DNA of 29,781 nt from a virus, in UHGV virus genome UHGV-0132373; one strand, 5' to 3'. Each line of letters begins with the position of its first letter. Position 1 is the first letter of the stretch. Made by a program: the position numbers and the translations under genes. Positions 6,118 to 14,123 of the stretch are shown one piece after another. The notes below the pieces were generated by a model. It made no database searches. It was not told where the DNA came from and saw only the letters and a list, made by a program, of their open reading frames with translations.

Positions 6118-6302
6118 ACGCCACAATTCAAACGATACCAGAGCTTCTTATCCAGACACGAGGCAATCAGACCGAAGTGGCGAGGATGCTTTCCTGCGCA
6201 AGAGGAACAGTGCTCAAGTACAACCGAGACAGCAAAGGCGAGCGTCATGTAATAGTTAACGGCGTCCTGATGGTCAAACAGGGCAAGAGGGGAAGACGAT
6301 GA
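6114..6302 (+). CDS. ninH: NinH-like protein
   Basis: 62 aa containing …IPELLIQTRGNQTEVARMLSCARGTVLKY…, matching the HTH-like core of lambda NinH (…GNQTEVARRLKCSRGTVRKY…). Confidence 0.8.
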   Translation: MNATIQTIPELLIQTRGNQTEVARMLSCARGTVLKYNRDSKGERHVIVNGVLMVKQGKRGRR

Positions 6303-6817
6303 GCATAAGAGAACTAAATCTCACCAAAGAGCAGCACGAGTGGCTGAATGGCTGGCTTGAACTGTGGGGCGCATGGGTTTATTCAGGTCGTCTGGAAAAG
6401 CGCATGAGCAGCGTAATAGCGAAGTTCATGGAGAGCGTAGAGCCGGGAAGAGTTATGACAAGGCCAATGTGCAATGATGATGATGGAATGTTGATTTCTC
6501 AGGTCGTCGATTCCGTCATGTACATTGACAAAAAAGCCTTTGGGATCCTCCTCAGCTACTACGCTCATGGTTCATCTAAGCGAGCAATTGCATCCTACTA
6601 TCACGCGACTGCAAAGCCACGCAAGATGTGTGGACGTGGTGGCGAGGGATGGAGAAAACCTTCACTGGCAACCTGTAGAAACGAAATTGACGACATCCTG
6701 AAAGCGTCGTTATTTGTTTTGTACCAACCAATGCAAAATGCTTTCAAAATGCGTAAACGTGTTGAGAAAGTTAAGCATGTTGCTGTTAAAAGCCTTGACA
6801 TGCAATTAGCCATTTAG
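6299..6817 (+). CDS. late-gene antiterminator Q (non-lambda Q type)
   Basis: 172-aa ORF in the canonical position between ninH and the lysis cassette; a sigma70-like promoter overlaps its 3' end as for lambda pR'. Family assignment by synteny and general resemblance, not by a defined motif. Confidence 0.65.
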   Translation: MSIRELNLTKEQHEWLNGWLELWGAWVYSGRLEKRMSSVIAKFMESVEPGRVMTRPMCNDDDGMLISQVVDSVMYIDKKAFGILLSYYAHGSSKRAIASYYHATAKPRKMCGRGGEGWRKPSLATCRNEIDDILKASLFVLYQPMQNAFKMRKRVEKVKHVAVKSLDMQLAI

Positions 6818-6824
6818 CCATAAT
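6795..6824 (+). promoter_or_regulatory. putative late promoter (pR'-like)
   Basis: TTGACA (6795-6800), 18-bp spacer, CATAAT (6819-6824), overlapping the Q stop codon. Confidence 0.5.
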
Positions 6825-6832
6825 TAGCAGGT

Positions 6833-6879
6833 AAGCTGCCGTTAGTGACTCTTAAGTTGCAACGGTGGCTTTTTTATTT
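6833..6879 (+). terminator. possible promoter-proximal terminator (tR'-like) for Q-mediated antitermination
   Basis: Imperfect hairpin GCTGCCGTT…AACGGTGGC followed by TTTTTTATTT about 40 nt downstream of the putative -10; the loop is long, so the structure is uncertain. Confidence 0.3.
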
Positions 6880-7393
6880 GCACAACAGGTAAGAGCATTG
6901 AACCCGCAGACCTCGCGGAATTGGTGAAAGGTGCCGCGCAGTGCTCTTATCGTTGTGGTGAATGCACAGGCTGATGCGTTAATCAGGTGAACGAGATACC
7001 CGCCGGTCCGTGATATGGCACACCGTGCCGGTCATATCTGCCACGGTTAGGTTTACGAGGATTTCGTAAAGCTGGTCTAGGGTGAAGCCGTGAAAGCGGA
7101 GGAAGTAAAACGAGGCGTCGGTACACGCCTATCGTCATTAAGTCGGAGTTCAGCACCGACCGCCACAACCCAAACTGAGCCGTAGCCACTGGCTGTCCTG
7201 AATTCATCAGTGATAGTTATGCTGCGGCCTTCTACACATGACCTTCGTGAAAGCGGGTGGCAAGAGGCTGCGCTAACAACCTCCTGCCGTTTTGCCCGTG
7301 CATATCGGTCACGAACAAATCTGATTACTAAACACAGTAGCCTGGATTTGTTCTATCAGTAATCGACCTTATTCCTAATTAAATAGAGCAAAT

Positions 7394-7413: not shown

Positions 7414-7737
7414 ATGAAGATGCCAGAAAAACATGACCTGTTAGCCGCCATTCTCGCGGCAAAGGAACAAGGCATCGGGGCAATCCTTGCGTTTGCAATG
7501 GCGTACCTTCGCGGCAGATATAATGGCGGTGCGTTTACAAAAACAGTAATCGACGCAACGATGTGCGCCATTATCGCCTGGTTCATTCGTGACCTTCTCG
7601 ACTTCGCCGGACTAAGTAGCAATCTCGCTTATATAACGAGCGTGTTCATCGGCTACATCGGTACTGACTCGATTGGTTCGCTTATCAAACGCTTCGCTGC
7701 TAAAAAAGCCGGAGTAGAAGATGGTGGAAATCAATAA
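7414..7737 (+). CDS. S: class I holin (lambda S; S107 antiholin / S105 holin dual start)
   Basis: 107-aa protein essentially identical to lambda S as I recall it ([67 protein letters not shown]…); Met-Lys-Met dual start. Confidence 0.96.
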
Positions 7738-8197
7738 TCAACGTAAGGCGTTCCTCGATATGCTGGCGTGGTCAGAGGGAACTGATAACGGACGGCAGAA
7801 AACCAGAAATCATGGTTATGACGTCATTGTAGGCGGAGAGCTATTCACTGATTACTCCGATCACCCTCGCAAACTTGTCACGCTAAACCCAAAACTCAAA
7901 TCAACAGCAGCCGGACGTTACCAGCTTCTTTCCCGTTGGTGGGATGCCTACCGTAAGCAGCTTGGCCTGAAAGATTTCTCTCCGAAAAGCCAGGACGCTG
8001 TGGCATTGCAGCAGATTAAGGAACGTGGCGCTTTGCCGATGATTGATCGCGGCGATATTCGTCAGGCTATCGACCGTTGCAGCAATATCTGGGCTTCACT
8101 GCCGGGGGCTGGTTACGGTCAGTTCGAGCATAAGGCTGACAGCCTGATTACAAAATTTAAAGAAGCGGGCGGAACGGTCAGAGAGATTGAGGTATGA
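7721..8197 (+). CDS. R: endolysin (lambda R-type lytic transglycosylase)
   Basis: 158 aa near-identical to lambda R as I recall it ([77 protein letters not shown]…); start overlaps the holin 3' end. Confidence 0.96.
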
Positions 8198-8631
8198 GCA
8201 GAGTAACCGCGATTATCTCCGCTCTGGTTATCTGCATCATCGTTTGCCTGTCATGGGCTGTTAATCACTACCGTGATAACGCCATCGCCTACAAAGAGCA
8301 GCGCGATAAGGCCGCATCCACAATTGCTGACATGCAGAAGCGTCAACGTGATGTAGCAGAACTCGATGCCAGATATACAAAGGAGCTTGCTGATGCTAAC
8401 GCGACTATCGAAAGTCTCCGTGCTGATGTTTCTGCTGGGCGTAAGCGCCTGCAAGTCGCCGCCACCTGTGCAAAGTCAACGACCGGAGCCAGCAGCATGG
8501 GCGATGGAGAAAGCCCAAGACTTACAGCAGATGCTGAACTCAATTATTACCGTCTACGAAGCGGAATCGACAGGATAACCGCGCAGGTTAACTACCTGCA
8601 GGAGTACATCAGGACGCAATGCCTTCGATGA
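8194..8631 (+). CDS. Rz: i-spanin Rz
   Basis: 145 aa with an N-terminal TM helix ([18 protein letters not shown]) and a coiled-coil periplasmic domain; N-terminus matches lambda Rz; ATGA overlap with R. Confidence 0.9.
8393..8578 (+). CDS. Rz1: o-spanin Rz1, lipoprotein embedded in the +1 frame of Rz
   Basis: 61 aa from ATG 8393 with AAGGAG seven nt upstream; signal peptide [20 protein letters not shown] with lipobox Cys, followed by a Pro-rich mature peptide ([16 protein letters not shown]). The ORF-track start at 8366 is probably too far upstream. Confidence 0.8.
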
Positions 8632-8804
8632 TAGCGATAATTTTACTCATCATCCTTCACATCTGGCTCTGTAGACAGGGTGATGATCACTTCTGGAGTA
8701 AATCCAGATTAAACATCTCATTGCTGATGCTTGATATTGAGCATCTGGCGCGCAGTAAGGGGCTGCGTTGAGATAAGAGCCAGTCATTACAAATACCAGG
8801 ATTT

Positions 8805-8831
8805 AGCCTCGCATTTGCGGGGCTTTTTTAT
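8805..8831 (+). terminator. putative intrinsic terminator downstream of the lysis cassette
   Basis: AGCCTCGC-attt-GCGGGGCT hairpin (one G-U pair) followed by TTTTTTAT. Confidence 0.55.
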
Positions 8832-8976
8832 ATCTGCAACAAACGCGCTTCACACGCGCGACTTCTGAACACAGAACCTTTCAGGATGACCCTTGAGGAT
8901 GCCGGTTTGGTGATCGGTGCCTTTCTGTGGGCCGGAATCCTGTGTGACAAGGTTCATCACTAAAAGGTAATCACTG

Positions 8977-9507
8977 ATGAAGTACCCAACAGTTATTGTC
9001 AATGGTGTGTCCGTTCGTGTTGATGAGGATGGACGCTACAACTTAAACGATCTCCATGCAGCAGCAGTTGCAAATGGAGAGGCTACAGAGCAACAGCGCC
9101 CAAGCCAGTTTTTGCGTAGCGCGCAGATAAAACGCTTCATAAAAGCACTGGAGGCCAAAGTGCAAAAAAGCACTTTGGAACAAATTCAACCACTTAAAAT
9201 AATCAAAGGTGGTGCAGAACCAGGTGTGTGGGGTGTTGAACTTCTGGCAATCAGATATGCAGCATGGATTAAGCCGGAATTTGAAATCGAAGTTTATGAA
9301 GTTTTCAAAACGGTCGTCCGTCTCGGCGTTGGCGCAATGTCCCGTCTGAATAGAATCGATCACATCATCAATACTGAAACCAAAGCGATAAGCCAGTGCG
9401 CAAGCCAAATGGCTAAGTGGGGCGTTGGTGGGCGAAAAAGATTGCTTCATGTTGCACGTGAGAGAGCGGCAAATGAAGTGCAAATGTATTTGCCCGGAAT
9501 GGTGTGA
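8977..9507 (+). CDS. KilA-N domain protein (N-terminal DNA-binding domain; accessory gene)
   Basis: 176-aa ORF between the lysis and packaging modules; N-terminal region (VNGVSVRVDEDGRYNLNDLHAAA…FLRS…IKRFIKALEAK) resembles KilA-N/APSES-type domains as I recall them. Domain call not verified by search. Confidence 0.6.
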   Translation: MKYPTVIVNGVSVRVDEDGRYNLNDLHAAAVANGEATEQQRPSQFLRSAQIKRFIKALEAKVQKSTLEQIQPLKIIKGGAEPGVWGVELLAIRYAAWIKPEFEIEVYEVFKTVVRLGVGAMSRLNRIDHIINTETKAISQCASQMAKWGVGGRKRLLHVARERAANEVQMYLPGMV

Positions 9508-9763
9508 TTTCGCAGGTTAATCCAGTTTTTGCATTACGGCAGTACCACGAAACAACCCAAGCCAGTAAGTGGGGAAATAACACTGGCAGCCACTGAAAGA
9601 TGAACCTCCCGCCTTATGGCAAAAAAGATTCTTTGTGGTGGCGGACTGATGGAAAGACATCGGTTATTGCAGAGACCATTCAATGAGTGGTCTCGACAAT
9701 GGCTTATACCCTACACGGGATAACTTAACTGATATCCCTTTTAACGGATAAACGGAGCCAACA

Positions 9764-10006
9764 ATGGCAGAGATTATTCCCATGACTGAAGAACAGAAAT
9801 TCCAGTTAGAGATTTACAAGCTGGTCATGAACCAGAACGCAGCCGCAGAAGAAGCATTTCAATTCATTGGCACTGACGAACTGAAGCTTGAGCTATTCAA
9901 AATTCACTTCCAGTCAGGCGGCGCTAATTCAGATATCACGATCCGCACATTCGAAGCGGTGCGTAAATCGAAGGAAGCGTTAGACCTGTTCACTACGGGA
10001 GCGTAA
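9764..10006 (+). CDS. hypothetical protein (80 aa) upstream of the small terminase
   Basis: ORF with AACGGAG upstream; acidic helical-looking protein. No recognised domain. Confidence 0.45.
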   Translation: MAEIIPMTEEQKFQLEIYKLVMNQNAAAEEAFQFIGTDELKLELFKIHFQSGGANSDITIRTFEAVRKSKEALDLFTTGA

Positions 10007-10085
10007 ACATGGCAACTCAAGGTTTCGACAACCCATCCAAATTCCGCGATGAATGGGATAAGCAAGCAGAAGGGAAATAATCAAT

Positions 10086-10511
10086 ATGGCGACTGAGAAA
10101 AAGAAAGGTGGTCGCCCCTCTGATTATATGCCGGAGGTGGCTAATGACATTTGCGCATTGCTTTCCTCCGGTGAGAGTCTGCGCAAAGTTTGCGAACGCC
10201 CAGGAATGCCGAGCAAAACATCAGTTTTTCGCTGGCTGGCTGAACATCAGGAGTTTCGTGACCAGTACGCGAAGGCAACAGAGACTCGGGCCGACTCTAT
10301 TTTCGAAGAGATATTCGAAATTGCTGACGACGTAATCCCTGATGCCGCCGAGGTGGCAAAGGCAAGACTTCGCGTTGATACCCGCAAATGGGCGCTGGCC
10401 AGAATGAATCCCCGTAAGTATGGCGACAAGGTAACTAATGAACTTGTCGGTAAAGACGGCGGCGCAATCCAGATTGAAACATCACCGATGAGCACTCTAT
10501 TCGGAAAATGA
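10086..10511 (+). CDS. terminase small subunit (Sf6 gp1-like)
   Basis: 141 aa with an N-terminal HTH-like region (GRPSDYMPEVANDICALLSSGESLRKVCERPGMPSKTSVFRWL) typical of Sf6-type TerS; directly followed by the overlapping large terminase. Confidence 0.88.
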   Translation: MATEKKKGGRPSDYMPEVANDICALLSSGESLRKVCERPGMPSKTSVFRWLAEHQEFRDQYAKATETRADSIFEEIFEIADDVIPDAAEVAKARLRVDTRKWALARMNPRKYGDKVTNELVGKDGGAIQIETSPMSTLFGK

Positions 10512-11923
10512 CCTCGATTAATCCTATCTTTGAACCGTTCATTGAGGCGCATCGCTACAAAGTCGCCAAAGGCGGTCGAGGTAGCGGTAAATCATGGGCA
10601 ATTGCGAGGCTGCTTGTTGAGGCGGCACGTCGGCAGCCTGTGCGTATTCTTTGCGCTCGTGAACTGCAAAACAGTATCAGCGATTCGGTAATCCGGTTGC
10701 TTGAAGACACCATCGAGCGGGAAGGGTATTCGGCTGAGTTTGAAATTCAGCGTTCCATGATTCGTCATCTCGGAACGAATGCTGAATTCATGTTCTACGG
10801 CATAAAAAACAACCCTACGAAGATTAAATCGCTCGAAGGCATTGATATCTGCTGGGTGGAAGAAGCGGAAGCGGTAACGAAGGAATCATGGGATATCCTG
10901 ATACCAACCATCCGCAAGCCGTTTTCCGAAATATGGGTGAGCTTTAACCCTAAGAACATCCTCGACGATACCTATCAGCGATTCGTCGTAAATCCTCCCG
11001 ATGATATTTGCCTGCTGACGGTGAACTACACCGACAACCCGCACTTTCCTGAAGTTCTCCGTCTGGAGATGGAAGAGTGCAAACGCAGAAATCCGACACT
11101 GTATCGTCATATCTGGCTTGGTGAGCCAGTAAGCGCAAGTGATATGGCAATCATCAAACGTGAATGGCTTGAAGCTGCAACCGATGCGCACAAGAAACTC
11201 GGATGGAAAGCGAAAGGCGCTGTTGTTTCTGCACATGACCCGTCAGATACAGGGCCAGATGCTAAAGGTTACGCATCGCGTCACGGTTCGGTGGTTAAGC
11301 GCATTGCCGAAGGTCTGCTGATGGACATCAACGATGGTGCTGACTGGGCTACTTCGCTGGCGATTGAAGACGGAGCTGACCATTACCTGTGGGATGGTGA
11401 TGGTGTCGGTGCAGGGCTACGCAGACAGACAACGGAAGCGTTCTCCGGTAAGAAAATCACCGCCACGATGTTCAAGGGCAGCGAATCGCCATTCGATGAA
11501 GATGCTCCGTATCAGGCCGGAGCATGGGCTGATGAAGTAGTACAGGGCGACAACGTTCGCACTATTGGCGATGTATTCCGCAATAAGCGAGCGCAATTCT
11601 ATTACGCGCTGGCTGACAGGCTGTATCTGACATATCGGGCGGTTGTCCACGGTGAGTATGCAGACCCCGACGACATGCTGAGTTTCGACAAAGAAGCGAT
11701 AGGCGAGAAGATGCTGGAGAAGCTGTTTGCAGAACTGACGCAGATTCAGCGCAAATTCAATAACAACGGGAAGCTGGAGCTTATGACTAAGGTCGAAATG
11801 AAGCAGAAGCTCGGTATTCCATCTCCTAACCTGGCTGATGCGTTGATGATGTGTATGCATTGCCCGGAGTCGGCTGCGCAACCCGACTATTCCAGTTACT
11901 CAATTCCTTGTGGTGTAGGTTGA
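10508..11923 (+). CDS. terminase large subunit
   Basis: 471 aa with an N-terminal ATPase Walker A region (YKVAKGGRGSGKSWAIARLL), a Walker B-like ICWVEEAE, and a C-terminal nuclease-type domain; ATGA overlap with TerS. Confidence 0.92.
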   Translation: MTSINPIFEPFIEAHRYKVAKGGRGSGKSWAIARLLVEAARRQPVRILCARELQNSISDSVIRLLEDTIEREGYSAEFEIQRSMIRHLGTNAEFMFYGIKNNPTKIKSLEGIDICWVEEAEAVTKESWDILIPTIRKPFSEIWVSFNPKNILDDTYQRFVVNPPDDICLLTVNYTDNPHFPEVLRLEMEECKRRNPTLYRHIWLGEPVSASDMAIIKREWLEAATDAHKKLGWKAKGAVVSAHDPSDTGPDAKGYASRHGSVVKRIAEGLLMDINDGADWATSLAIEDGADHYLWDGDGVGAGLRRQTTEAFSGKKITATMFKGSESPFDEDAPYQAGAWADEVVQGDNVRTIGDVFRNKRAQFYYALADRLYLTYRAVVHGEYADPDDMLSFDKEAIGEKMLEKLFAELTQIQRKFNNNGKLELMTKVEMKQKLGIPSPNLADALMMCMHCPESAAQPDYSSYSIPCGVG

Positions 11924-11924
11924 T

Positions 11925-14123
11925 ATGGCAGAAAAAAAGATGACTGACTGGCATCGCAAGGTGCTGTGCAACTTTGATAATGCCTGGTCAGCAACGCAGG
12001 ATATGCGTGAGCAGATTATTGAGGCTCAACGTTTCGTCCGGGTGTCCGGCGCACAGTGGGAAGGCAGTACAAACGCTGGTTACTCATTTGATGAGGGCAG
12101 GTTTGAGCATTACCCGCGCTTTGAACTGAATAAGATTGCCCGTGAATGTGATCGCATCATTGGCGAGTATCGACAGAATCGCATCAGCGTTAAATTCAGG
12201 CCGAAGGACGATAAGGCATCGGAAGCGTTAGCCGAAAAGATGAACGGCAAATTCCGCGCTGACTATCAGGAAACATCAGGTGGCGAAGCGTGTGATAACG
12301 CATTTGATGATGCTGTAACGGGCGGATTCGGTTGTTTCCGCATGTGTGCCGATTACGAAGATGAAATGGACCCAAGTAACGAGCAGCGACGCATCAGCCT
12401 TCTTCCTGTTTACGACCCGGCGACATGCGTCTTCTTCGATCAGGACAGCAAACAATATGACCGCTCTGATGCTATGTGGGCTATGGAAATGTTCTCCATG
12501 ACGCCTAAAGCGTTCGAGGCTGAATACCCTGATTCCATTGCGGCAAGCCTTTCTCGGGATGACACTGGTACTCAGTATGACTGGTCAACGCCTGACGCCA
12601 TCTATGTTGGACGTTACTACGAAGTTCGCATAGAGAAGGTGAAGCTCACGGCGTGGCGCAACCCTGTTAGCGGAGAAACGGCAATCTATGATGAAGAGCA
12701 AATCAAAGATATTGTCGACGAGCTGACCGATGGTGCATTCGAACTGATTGGCGAGCGAACGGTGAAGAAGCGCCGCGTTTATTGCGGTCTTCTGTCTGGC
12801 GCTGAATGGCTGGAAGAACCGAAGCGTATTCCGGGTGAACATATTCCTCTCATCCCGGTATATGGGCGTCGCTCATTTGTTGATAATCAGGAGCGAATCG
12901 AAGGCCACGCAGCAAAAGCGATGGATGCACAGCGTCTTGAGAACCTGATGGTTTCCATGATTGCAGATAACGCTACTCAGGCTGGCGGTGATGGCATTCC
13001 TGTAGTTGATGTTGACATGATTCCTGGTCCTCTCGCCACTCATTGGGCGGAGCGCAACAAAAAGCGCCCGGCGTTCCTGCCGATGGTCAGTCTGAAAAAC
13101 AAAAACGGAGATATTACTGCGCAGGCTCAGGTCAGCAGTTATACACCTCCGACACAAATGCCTCCTGCTCTTGCCGGGCTATTGCAGTACACCGGAACGG
13201 CTATTCAGCAAATTACAGGTGCGTCGCAGCTTGAGAATATGCCGAGCAACGTCGCTACCGATACCGTTGATAGCATCTTTAACCGGATGGACACGCAGTC
13301 CTATATCTACATGGACAACATGGCTAAATCCATGCGCCGCGCTGGCGTCGTGTGGCTTTCTATGGCGCGTGAAGTCTATGGCAGCGATACGCCAATGCGC
13401 ATCGTTAATGAGGACGGCAGCGATGACGTGGCGCTGATGACTGGTGAAGTGGTTGACCGTCAGACAGGGCAGGTTATCGCGCTTAACGACCTTTCGCAGG
13501 GTAACTATGAAGTGACTGTCGATGTCGGTCAGTCGTTCGCTACTCGCCGTGATGCAACGGTTAAGTCGTTACTTTCCATGCTGGCACTTATCCCACCAGG
13601 AACGCCGAAGCACGACCTTGTATCGTCGATGATTCTCGACAATATGGACGGCGAAGGGATGGACGACCTGAAAGAATACAACCGCAATCAGTTGCTTCTG
13701 TCTGGCGTTATCAAGCCGAGAACGCCTGAAGAACAGCAGATGGTTGAACAGGCGAAACAACAACAGGCCAGTCAGCCAGATCCGGCTATGGTTGCAGCGC
13801 AAGGTCAGCTTCTTGCTGGTCAGGCTGAATTGCAGAAAGCGCAGAACGAACAGGCAGCCATTCAGGTTAAAGCATTCCAGGCACAGACTGATGCTCAGGT
13901 TGCAGCGGCAAACGTTGTGAAAATCCTCGCATCTGCCGATAGCCAGCAGAAATCTGATATCCGCGAGGCTCTGAAACTGCTCGGACAGTTCCAGCAACAG
14001 CAAGGAGACAATGCCCGCGCTGATGCAGAGCTTGTCCTGAAAAGTCAGGCACAGGGACATGCGCAGCGCATGGACATCAGCAGCATCCTGCAAAAATCAA
14101 CTCAGCAACAACCACAGCAGTAA
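11925..14123 (+). CDS. portal protein (P22 gp1 / Sf6 gp3-like)
   Basis: 732 aa; conserved portal segments (…KRRRVYCGLLSG…GEHIPLIPVYG…) and a Gln-rich C-terminal helical barrel (…DPAMVAAQGQLLAGQAELQKAQNEQ…RMDISSILQ) characteristic of P22-like portals. Confidence 0.92.
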   Translation: MAEKKMTDWHRKVLCNFDNAWSATQDMREQIIEAQRFVRVSGAQWEGSTNAGYSFDEGRFEHYPRFELNKIARECDRIIGEYRQNRISVKFRPKDDKASEALAEKMNGKFRADYQETSGGEACDNAFDDAVTGGFGCFRMCADYEDEMDPSNEQRRISLLPVYDPATCVFFDQDSKQYDRSDAMWAMEMFSMTPKAFEAEYPDSIAASLSRDDTGTQYDWSTPDAIYVGRYYEVRIEKVKLTAWRNPVSGETAIYDEEQIKDIVDELTDGAFELIGERTVKKRRVYCGLLSGAEWLEEPKRIPGEHIPLIPVYGRRSFVDNQERIEGHAAKAMDAQRLENLMVSMIADNATQAGGDGIPVVDVDMIPGPLATHWAERNKKRPAFLPMVSLKNKNGDITAQAQVSSYTPPTQMPPALAGLLQYTGTAIQQITGASQLENMPSNVATDTVDSIFNRMDTQSYIYMDNMAKSMRRAGVVWLSMAREVYGSDTPMRIVNEDGSDDVALMTGEVVDRQTGQVIALNDLSQGNYEVTVDVGQSFATRRDATVKSLLSMLALIPPGTPKHDLVSSMILDNMDGEGMDDLKEYNRNQLLLSGVIKPRTPEEQQMVEQAKQQQASQPDPAMVAAQGQLLAGQAELQKAQNEQAAIQVKAFQAQTDAQVAAANVVKILASADSQQKSDIREALKLLGQFQQQQGDNARADAELVLKSQAQGHAQRMDISSILQKSTQQQPQQ

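Follow-up and report, generated by a model that had tools for sequence, protein, structure and literature searches.

The window analysed here, the 29,781 nucleotides (nt) of the UHGV virus genome UHGV-0132373, contains at positions 8977-9507 of the + strand a gene for a 176-amino acid (aa) KilA-N protein, located between the lysis cassette and the packaging genes of a prophage. This gene is better described as one allele of a hypervariable slot, the one occupied by rha in phage P22, within a Q-dependent late operon. Reading all the evidence jointly, we consider it probable that the product is a non-essential accessory DNA-binding protein carried on a portable terminator-leader module, and that its expression would be late, Q-dependent and translationally restrained.

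The gene starts with ATG, is the sole long open reading frame (ORF) of its region and has an identical counterpart in E. coli SFAD3 that RefSeq labels 'KilA-N domain-containing protein'. An earlier reading of this DNA, made from its letters and hereafter called the sequence-only reading, had proposed a KilA-N domain and a non-structural product. The former was confirmed by Pfam PF04383, which matched aa 9-113 over profile positions 6-104 of 107 with 64.8 bits against a cut-off of 23.8 (E=7.3e-18), and the APSES-like alpha/beta fold of KilA-N proteins was recognized; the latter was likewise supported. PHROG 129, annotated as 'transcriptional regulator', matched with E=1.6e-60. The parts of the gene are as follows:

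8977-9507 (+): KilA-N gene, 176-aa product, KilA-N plus ORF11CD3-like
9001-9315 (+): KilA-N/APSES-type DNA-binding domain, aa 9-113
9343-9504 (+): C-terminal helical hairpin, putative divergent ORF11CD3, aa ~123-176, from profile comparisons

Judging from its fold, the KilA-N/APSES domain would bind DNA. The protein was modelled by AlphaFold from an alignment of 36 sequences, with a mean predicted local distance difference test (pLDDT) value of 86.4; beyond residue ~100 the model consists of a long helix and then a helical hairpin, a part resembled only by generic coiled coils. A PDB sequence search with the protein gave no relatives. The ratio of nonsynonymous to synonymous substitution rates (dN/dS), 0.07-0.11, indicated purifying selection. 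Pfam reported KilA-N alone, with none of the antirepressor domains ANT, AntA, P22_AR or KilA-C and no nuclease domain or catalytic motif. PHROG 129 was matched over only 173 of its 273 profile positions, and a truncated gene was therefore considered and rejected: we found 458 homologues across Enterobacterales, and among the best-scoring 120 of them the length was nearly always 170-177 aa, so that the 176-aa product is full length. In a separate observation, codon 140 of the phage ST64B copy (sb54; L007:2670-3236) was found to be an in-frame stop; the annotation accordingly gives a 139-aa 'transcriptional regulator'. The remaining frame is intact, which suggests that the nonsense mutation arose recently, in a prophage that is known as defective.

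Sequence comparisons moderately support the region of aa 114-176 as a divergent ORF11CD3 domain. The whole protein aligned with HK620 hkbK, in which Pfam finds KilA-N and ORF11CD3, with 26% identity (E=6e-17). A custom hidden Markov model (HMM), built solely from the tails of the Rha-type, the hkbK-type and a third KilA-N type (G7), matched members of the 176-aa KilA-N family at E from 5e-6 to 1e-2. In that search one decoy (decoy20) appeared at E=0.01 with a score nearly equal to that of the query, and was taken to be the query ORF itself within the six-frame set; the next decoy had E=1.8. When the tail alignments were compared by hhalign the probability was 84% (E=7e-6), and a motif S-x-C...W-G...Q-x-x-x-P-G was common to this C-terminal tail and the ORF11CD3 proteins. 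The domain-swapping 'Bro network' counts KilA-N, Phage_pRha and ORF11CD3 among its members (PMC10111431). The ORF11CD3-like hairpin is likely an oligomerisation or partner-binding part.

The identity of the slot emerged from the comparison with P22-like relatives. P22 carries rha, encoding Phage_pRha plus ORF11CD3, at this very position, between the spanin genes and DUF2560/small terminase, and homology to the window restarts at 9536, directly after the rha stop codon. The limits of the slot in the window are:

8619-8771 (+): conserved 50-aa ORF (phrog_11822), homologue of Sf6 gene 65 and epsilon34 gp67; left flank of the slot
8794-9533 (+): extent of the replaceable cassette with respect to near-empty relatives
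9534-9763 (+): conserved spacer with the DUF2560 5' region, bounding the slot on the right

Mapping of the junctions by BLAST revealed a left flank common to CUS-3, HK620, Sf6, Sf101, epsilon34, HF4s and Huey up to 8793, 8831, 8860 or 8997, and a right flank common to all those E. coli and Shigella relatives from 9534/9536, with different content in between. The Salmonella phages ST104, SE1 and UPF_BP1, together with the unrelated ST64B, contain 8806-9542/9715 at 89-94% identity, preceded by other lysis cassettes. According to Pfam, the alternative occupants include Rha plus ORF11CD3 in CUS-3 and Sf101, KilA-N plus ORF11CD3 in HK620 (hkbK), T5orf172/MUG113 in epsilon34 (gp68) and a Tad2-like protein in Huey; a gene of the Gp49/Sf6-gene-66 family enters at a second indel point, 9661|9663 to 9684. 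Among 80 IMG/VR loci whose DUF2560 is identical, 71 were complete and were counted in a census, with the following occupancy:

Rha-type occupant: 25 of 71 loci
KilA-N type of the window: 6 of 71 loci (about 8%)
Two other KilA-N types: 9 of 71 loci
T5orf172: 9 of 71 loci
Tad2-like: 4 of 71 loci
Gene-66 family only: 3 of 71 loci
50-aa ORF only: 12 of 71 loci
No recognised occupant: 3 of 71 loci

Of the 12 loci in which the 50-aa ORF stands alone, several have window positions 8794-9533 replaced by some 54 bp, and among 5426 complete E. coli genomes the KilA-N gene was found in 79 and the DUF2560 flank in 890. The slot census, these near-empty alleles and the 79 versus 890 genomes show a dispensable and mobile gene that is not linked to the terminase. 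The presence/absence comparison proposed in the sequence-only reading thus yielded a polymorphic gene; it does match the KilA-N profile and it is no universally conserved packaging accessory.

The Tad2-like (Thoeris anti-defence 2-like, PF11195) genes deserve mention on their own. They occupy the slot without a structured leader in Huey (L012:1454-1954), in two further loci (L015 and L079) and in other IMG/VR loci, and one of these loci also contains a gene for a trypsin-like peptidase (L079, 2597-3337). These occupants imply that the lysis-packaging junction of P22-like phages also gathers anti-defence cargo.

The same gene is found beyond P22-like phages. Members 70-86% identical are present in siphovirus-type prophages of Klebsiella, Dickeya and Enterobacter, lying in the same direction as the DUF6246 tail gene before them and the tape-measure gene after them, about 200 bp past the upstream gene. 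In these contexts the DNA homology starts at the terminator, not at the start codon. The cassette does not deviate in GC content (0.469 vs 0.478 for the window), and recurrent breakpoints fall at hairpins (8805/6, 8859/60 and 9534/6).

What is shared together with the gene includes its upstream region, whose elements are listed below:

8805-8834 (+): intrinsic terminator with an 8-bp stem, an ATTT loop and a T-run; 5' edge of the cassette
8844-8860 (+): GC hairpin H2, CGCGC-TTCACAC-GCGCG, with the recurrent recombination breakpoint 8859/8860
8861-8976 (+): structured 5' leader, ~115 nt
8870-8876 (CACAGAA) with 8923-8929 (TTCTGTG) (+): helix P1
8902-8917 (+): small hairpin inside the leader
8876-8881 (ACCTTT), 8883-8889 (AGGATGA) and 8891-8895 (CCTTG) (+): 5' side of a long interrupted helix
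8948-8952 (CAAGG), 8954-8960 (TCATCAC) and 8963-8968 (AAAGGT, the Shine-Dalgarno sequence, SD) (+): 3' side of the long helix

The flanking terminator noticed in the sequence-only reading is real: its stem, AGCCTCGC/GCGGGGCT at 8805-8824, is followed by TTTTTTAT and covaries among relatives. Every leader listed opens with a GC-rich hairpin and a T-run whose stem sequence varies between lineages, and the annotation of epsilon34 calls this element a Rho-independent terminator. The GC hairpin was found as an exact 16-mer (CGCGCTTCACACGCGC, window position 8844) in at least 120 viral contigs. Where an ORF lay downstream (67 contigs), it encoded KilA-N (32 of the window type and 10 of another) or Rha (17) in 59 cases, 117-134 nt downstream of the 16-mer; the upstream neighbour was Rz or the 50-aa ORF in 32 cases, DUF6246 in 17 and another gene in 7. 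The same terminator-hairpin-leader layout, in other sequence, precedes HK620 hkbK, two more Rha types, the T5orf172 gene of epsilon34 and P22 rha; it is absent from the Tad2-like gene of Huey. A second pattern scan for leaders (CTGTGTGACAGGYTC) gave 78 matches, 11 of them genuine leaders and the rest chance.

Two helices of the leader, within a fold that is provisional, are supported by covariation. P1 occurred in 11 distinct variants at a constant position, all of them with 7/7 bases paired and with at least two Watson-Crick pair types at 5 of the 7 positions; slid controls gave 2.3-4.3 pairs, and none of 2000 partner shuffles reached the observed pairing. Additional variants, including those of HK620, epsilon34 and P22, were CGAGAG/CTCTCG, CCCGAG/CTCGGG, CCACCGA/TCGGTGG and CCCGGAA/TTCTGGG. 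The long helix, which pairs the SD, was the minimum-energy fold in 12 of the 12 leaders folded, representing all 11 sequence types. Its duplexes had a mean of -27.4 kcal/mol within a type vs -19.7 kcal/mol across types, and those of type A with types B-H reached just -9.5 to -19.6 kcal/mol. Wobble pairs were G-U on the + strand only, as expected of an RNA transcribed in the direction of the operon, and the leader of the window folded better than shuffled sequences (z=-3.2). As P1 crosses the long helix, the two would be alternatives.

The central part of the leader varies in length, with differences of 23, 24, 34, 38 and 39 nt, and most types have no start codon; the leader is therefore non-coding. 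On the same grounds we rejected a leader peptide, a 25-codon hydrophobic ORF (MTLEDAGLVIGAFLWAGILCDKVHH, 8886-8963, + strand) that stops 14 nt ahead of the KilA-N start codon; it is contained in type A, is not conserved in the other types and is probably not a gene. A search of 8500-10200 against Rfam 15 (E<=1) found the leader (8844-8976, +) overlapped only by a sub-threshold asX2 match on the opposite strand (8804-8883). This conserved module, found with Bro-network and T5orf172 genes and also ahead of P22 rha, was the less expected result of our work; neither Rfam nor the papers searched described it.

The sequence-only reading took roughly 250 bp of non-coding DNA on each side of the gene as marks of an insertion. 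The downstream gap is indeed of that size (256 bp, 9508-9763); the upstream one is smaller, 205 bp from the 50-aa ORF to the start codon, or 345 bp if this ORF is not counted. The interpretation as insertion marks did not hold on either side. Sequence comparison identifies the upstream flank as a conserved terminator plus structured leader shared with other occupants of the slot, not as an insertion scar, and from 9534/9536 onwards the relatives match the downstream flank at 96-98% identity, whichever gene precedes it. A remnant gene in the downstream spacer was also rejected, as the spacer consists of conserved DUF2560 5' sequence with a clean Gp49/gene-66 indel point.

Several features of this downstream DNA were recorded. 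The + strand of 9505-9775 folded much better than shuffled sequences (z=-3.8), and a perfect 7-bp hairpin, GAGACCA-TTCAATGAG-TGGTCTC (~9672-9694), is located at the gene-66 indel point. The Proteo-phage-1 RNA (RF03044) gave a sub-threshold match at 9520-9591 (+), with 21.7 bits vs a gathering value of 42 (E=0.076 on a 291-nt stretch), in which AAGCCaGUaAGUG and GAAAuAACACuGGCAGCC are the matching blocks and the consensus GCCGG...CCGGC is replaced by GCCAG...CUGGC, an apparently compensatory change; a search of 11 related loci (E<=0.5) did not reproduce this resemblance. The junctions of empty or deleted alleles (L029:3180-3300 and L066:3330-3460) repeatedly contain a short hairpin and then GA(T/C)AATGG, whose counterpart in the window is GAGTGGTCTCGACAATGG at ~9686-9703; this combination may be a recurrent boundary or recombination motif.

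The window itself is a P22-like prophage of E. coli (Lederbergvirus, of the CUS-3/HK620/Sf6 type). It matches CUS-3 over 72% of 25 kb with 96% identity, and positions 8600-10100 are 100% identical to the E. coli SFAD3 chromosome. The gene is placed as the sequence-only reading had stated, after holin, endolysin and Rz (7414-8631) and before the genes from DUF2560 to portal (9764-14123). The remaining features of the late region are:

6299-6817 (+): Q antiterminator gene
6795-6824 (+): PR'-like late promoter, TTGACA-18-CATAAT, 11 of 12 consensus matches, overlapping the Q stop codon
~6836-6880 (+): tR'-like long-loop hairpin and T-run, directly after the PR'-like promoter
7414-7737 (+): lambda-type holin
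7721-8197 (+): endolysin
8194-8631 (+): Rz
9764-10006 (+): DUF2560
10086-10511 (+): Sf6-type small terminase
10508-11923 (+): TerL
11925-14123 (+): portal

PR' followed by tR' is the usual lambdoid layout after Q; the terminator scanner passed over the hairpin at ~6836-6880. Transcription of the entire operon, from lysis to packaging, would start at the PR'-like promoter. Some related loci have two tRNA genes at the start of the late operon (L029:1438-1590), as Sf6 and phage L do. P22-like late genes are described as one polycistronic operon subject to antitermination, and the late genes of phage BTP1 form a single polycistronic unit (PMC7067206). Intra-operon terminators are common in P22-like late operons and their role is unexplained; the authors of the phage L genome paper suggested that such terminators may halt transcription unmodified by gp23/gp24 (PMC8022706).

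These elements suggest the following model. A module ordered as intrinsic terminator, GC hairpin, ~115-nt structured leader and ORF recombines into late operons; in P22-like phages and ST64B it follows the spanin genes, and in siphovirus-type prophages it occupies the gap before the tape-measure gene, behind a tail gene. Transcription would come from PR' by a Q-modified, terminator-resistant RNA polymerase, and polymerase not modified by Q would halt at 8805-8834, leaving the gene silent in the lysogen until the late programme is switched on. At equilibrium the leader fold would hide the ribosome-binding site through an upstream anti-SD segment, with P1 as a competitor, so that translation would be low or confined to nascent or remodelled transcripts. 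Such restraint would be appropriate for a product that does harm in excess; P1 KilA and the Rha proteins of P22 and phi80 are reportedly harmful to the cell or the phage when mis-expressed. Late in infection the protein might bind the DNA of the phage, of its host or of prophages and satellites residing in the same cell, and modulate it in the manner of a regulator or antirepressor, with no part in lysis or packaging. This role as a DNA-binding accessory regulator or conflict factor is what knowledge of the family would predict. Only tentatively do we propose that the terminator, the GC hairpin and the ~115-nt leader constitute an undescribed portable cis-regulatory RNA module that accompanies Bro-network and T5orf172 genes, including P22 rha, in enterobacterial phage late operons, and that switches between the SD-sequestering helix and P1, limiting a harmful DNA-binding product to a short Q-dependent window.

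Several observations weigh against the late, restrained expression, the leader fold or the domain assignment proposed here. The scan that found no sigma-70-like site on the + strand of 8832-8976 was based on the consensus and would miss weak or activator-dependent promoters, and the leaders of some relatives (types B and C) contain a perfect TATAAT just after the GC hairpin, albeit without a usable -35 element and in leader types other than that of the window. No IHF consensus site was found in the leader, Rha being said to have a link with IHF. Pfam ORF11CD3 (PF10549) did not match aa 109-176 even at E<=10; with the Pfam model silent on the C-terminus, the evidence for this homology is that of moderately strong profile comparisons. 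For the covariation counts we used anchor-based alignments of our own making, from about a dozen leader lineages, and RNAalifold on a plain MAFFT alignment gave a different, partly overlapping set of helices. As the MAFFT alignment misplaces leader types by one base, anchor-based extraction and duplex energies were used instead.

The sequence-only reading regarded the gene as a moron-type insertion, and part of this view was upheld, since the gene is present or absent at a module boundary and recurs in foreign backbones; its own promoter and a downstream terminator were not found. A classical moron would be transcribed from its own promoter in the repressed prophage to the benefit of the lysogen. 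Its polymorphism at a module boundary, the non-coding DNA on both sides, a terminator able to shield it from upstream transcription and the TATAAT of the type B and C leaders agree with this explanation, which we nevertheless hold to be unlikely: apart from the promoter scan and the shortcomings of that TATAAT already described, no terminator-like site was found on the + strand of 9508-9763, the GC content is not deviant, a stable leader fold that pairs the SD does not suggest constitutive expression, and the gene is always co-oriented within late operons. Alternatively, the cassette might be a selfish element of the homing type, with KilA-N, Rha or T5orf172 proteins as site-specific binding or nicking factors at the boundary hairpins. 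The sharp recurrent breakpoints at those hairpins, the T5orf172/GIY-YIG-like gene among the alternative occupants, the same cassette in unrelated backbones and the likeness to homing-endonuclease folds remarked on in the Bro-network literature (PMC10111431) would fit such an element. However, the protein showed no nuclease domain or catalytic motif, homologous recombination in the conserved flanks explains the breakpoints equally well, and near-empty alleles persist at appreciable frequency, which makes a homing cassette quite improbable.

The slot also holds conflict genes such as the Tad2-like ones, and the KilA-N protein could thus be imagined as an abortive-infection protein of the BstA type, acting on the replicating DNA of superinfecting phages. 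We judge this very unlikely, as PADLOC gave 0 families, the 176-aa protein has an ORF11CD3-like tail instead of the BstA C-terminal domain, and its gene lies in the late operon behind a terminator rather than beside the repressor, where expression in the lysogen would be possible. The least credible of the explanations considered is that of a packaging accessory aiding the small terminase in the recognition of phage DNA, for which the DNA-binding domain and the vicinity of DUF2560 and the Sf6-type small terminase could be invoked: about 90% of the loci with an identical DUF2560 and a related terminase lack the gene, the same gene lies between tail genes in other phages, and the ST64B copy bears a premature stop.

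The gene is real and an ordinary accessory one, already annotated in RefSeq and of a family common in Enterobacterales prophages, and the variability of the slot is already visible in published genomes. Its recognition as an allele of the P22 rha locus allows the lysis-packaging junction of P22-like phages to be regarded as a single functional slot, in which DNA-binding proteins of the Bro network mostly replace one another and anti-defence genes, for instance the Tad2-like ones, appear at times. That the mobile unit includes conserved regulatory RNA or DNA offers a concrete, testable reason for the intra-operon terminator. If the leader were indeed a translational switch, it would represent a compact, transferable control element and, in addition, a handle for finding more conflict genes embedded in late operons.

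Among known systems, the MS2 maturation gene and the hok mRNA are examples of translation controlled by alternative or delayed RNA folding; the leader resembles them in logic only, by its long-distance SD-pairing helix and the competing upstream helix, with no sequence relationship. BstA of the BTP1 prophage also has a KilA-N-like N-terminal domain and belongs to a P22-like phage, but it is of another size, has another C-terminal domain, is encoded elsewhere in the genome and is expected to be expressed at another time. The KilA protein of P1, with a reported host-killing phenotype, has an N-terminal KilA-N domain ~34% identical over ~104 aa; it is longer (266 aa), has another C-terminal part and is encoded in the lytic replicon region of P1, not in a late operon. 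Like the lambdoid morons (those of HK97 and HK022, or the 'ant moron' of P22-like phages), the gene is an extra, non-essential one of variable content between conserved late genes; in contrast to them, neither a promoter of its own nor a downstream terminator was found, and the upstream terminator and the SD-pairing leader suggest dependence on antiterminated late transcription. HK620 hkbK occupies the same slot, probably has the same domain order and can be aligned over its full length, although it is a 26% identical protein of a separate lineage, with hkbL as the next gene and a leader of type D. By position and architecture, the counterparts are the Rha proteins of P22 (orf201), CUS-3 and Sf101. 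Their N-terminal domain is Rha instead of KilA-N, and the C-terminus of the window protein is too divergent for Pfam. Nevertheless, they occupy the same slot, after Rz/Rz1 and before orf80/DUF2560; homology with Sf101 and CUS-3 extends through the first ~7 codons. They also have their right junction at the same base, probably the same two-domain plan with an ORF11CD3-type tail, and the same upstream architecture of terminator, GC hairpin and leader.

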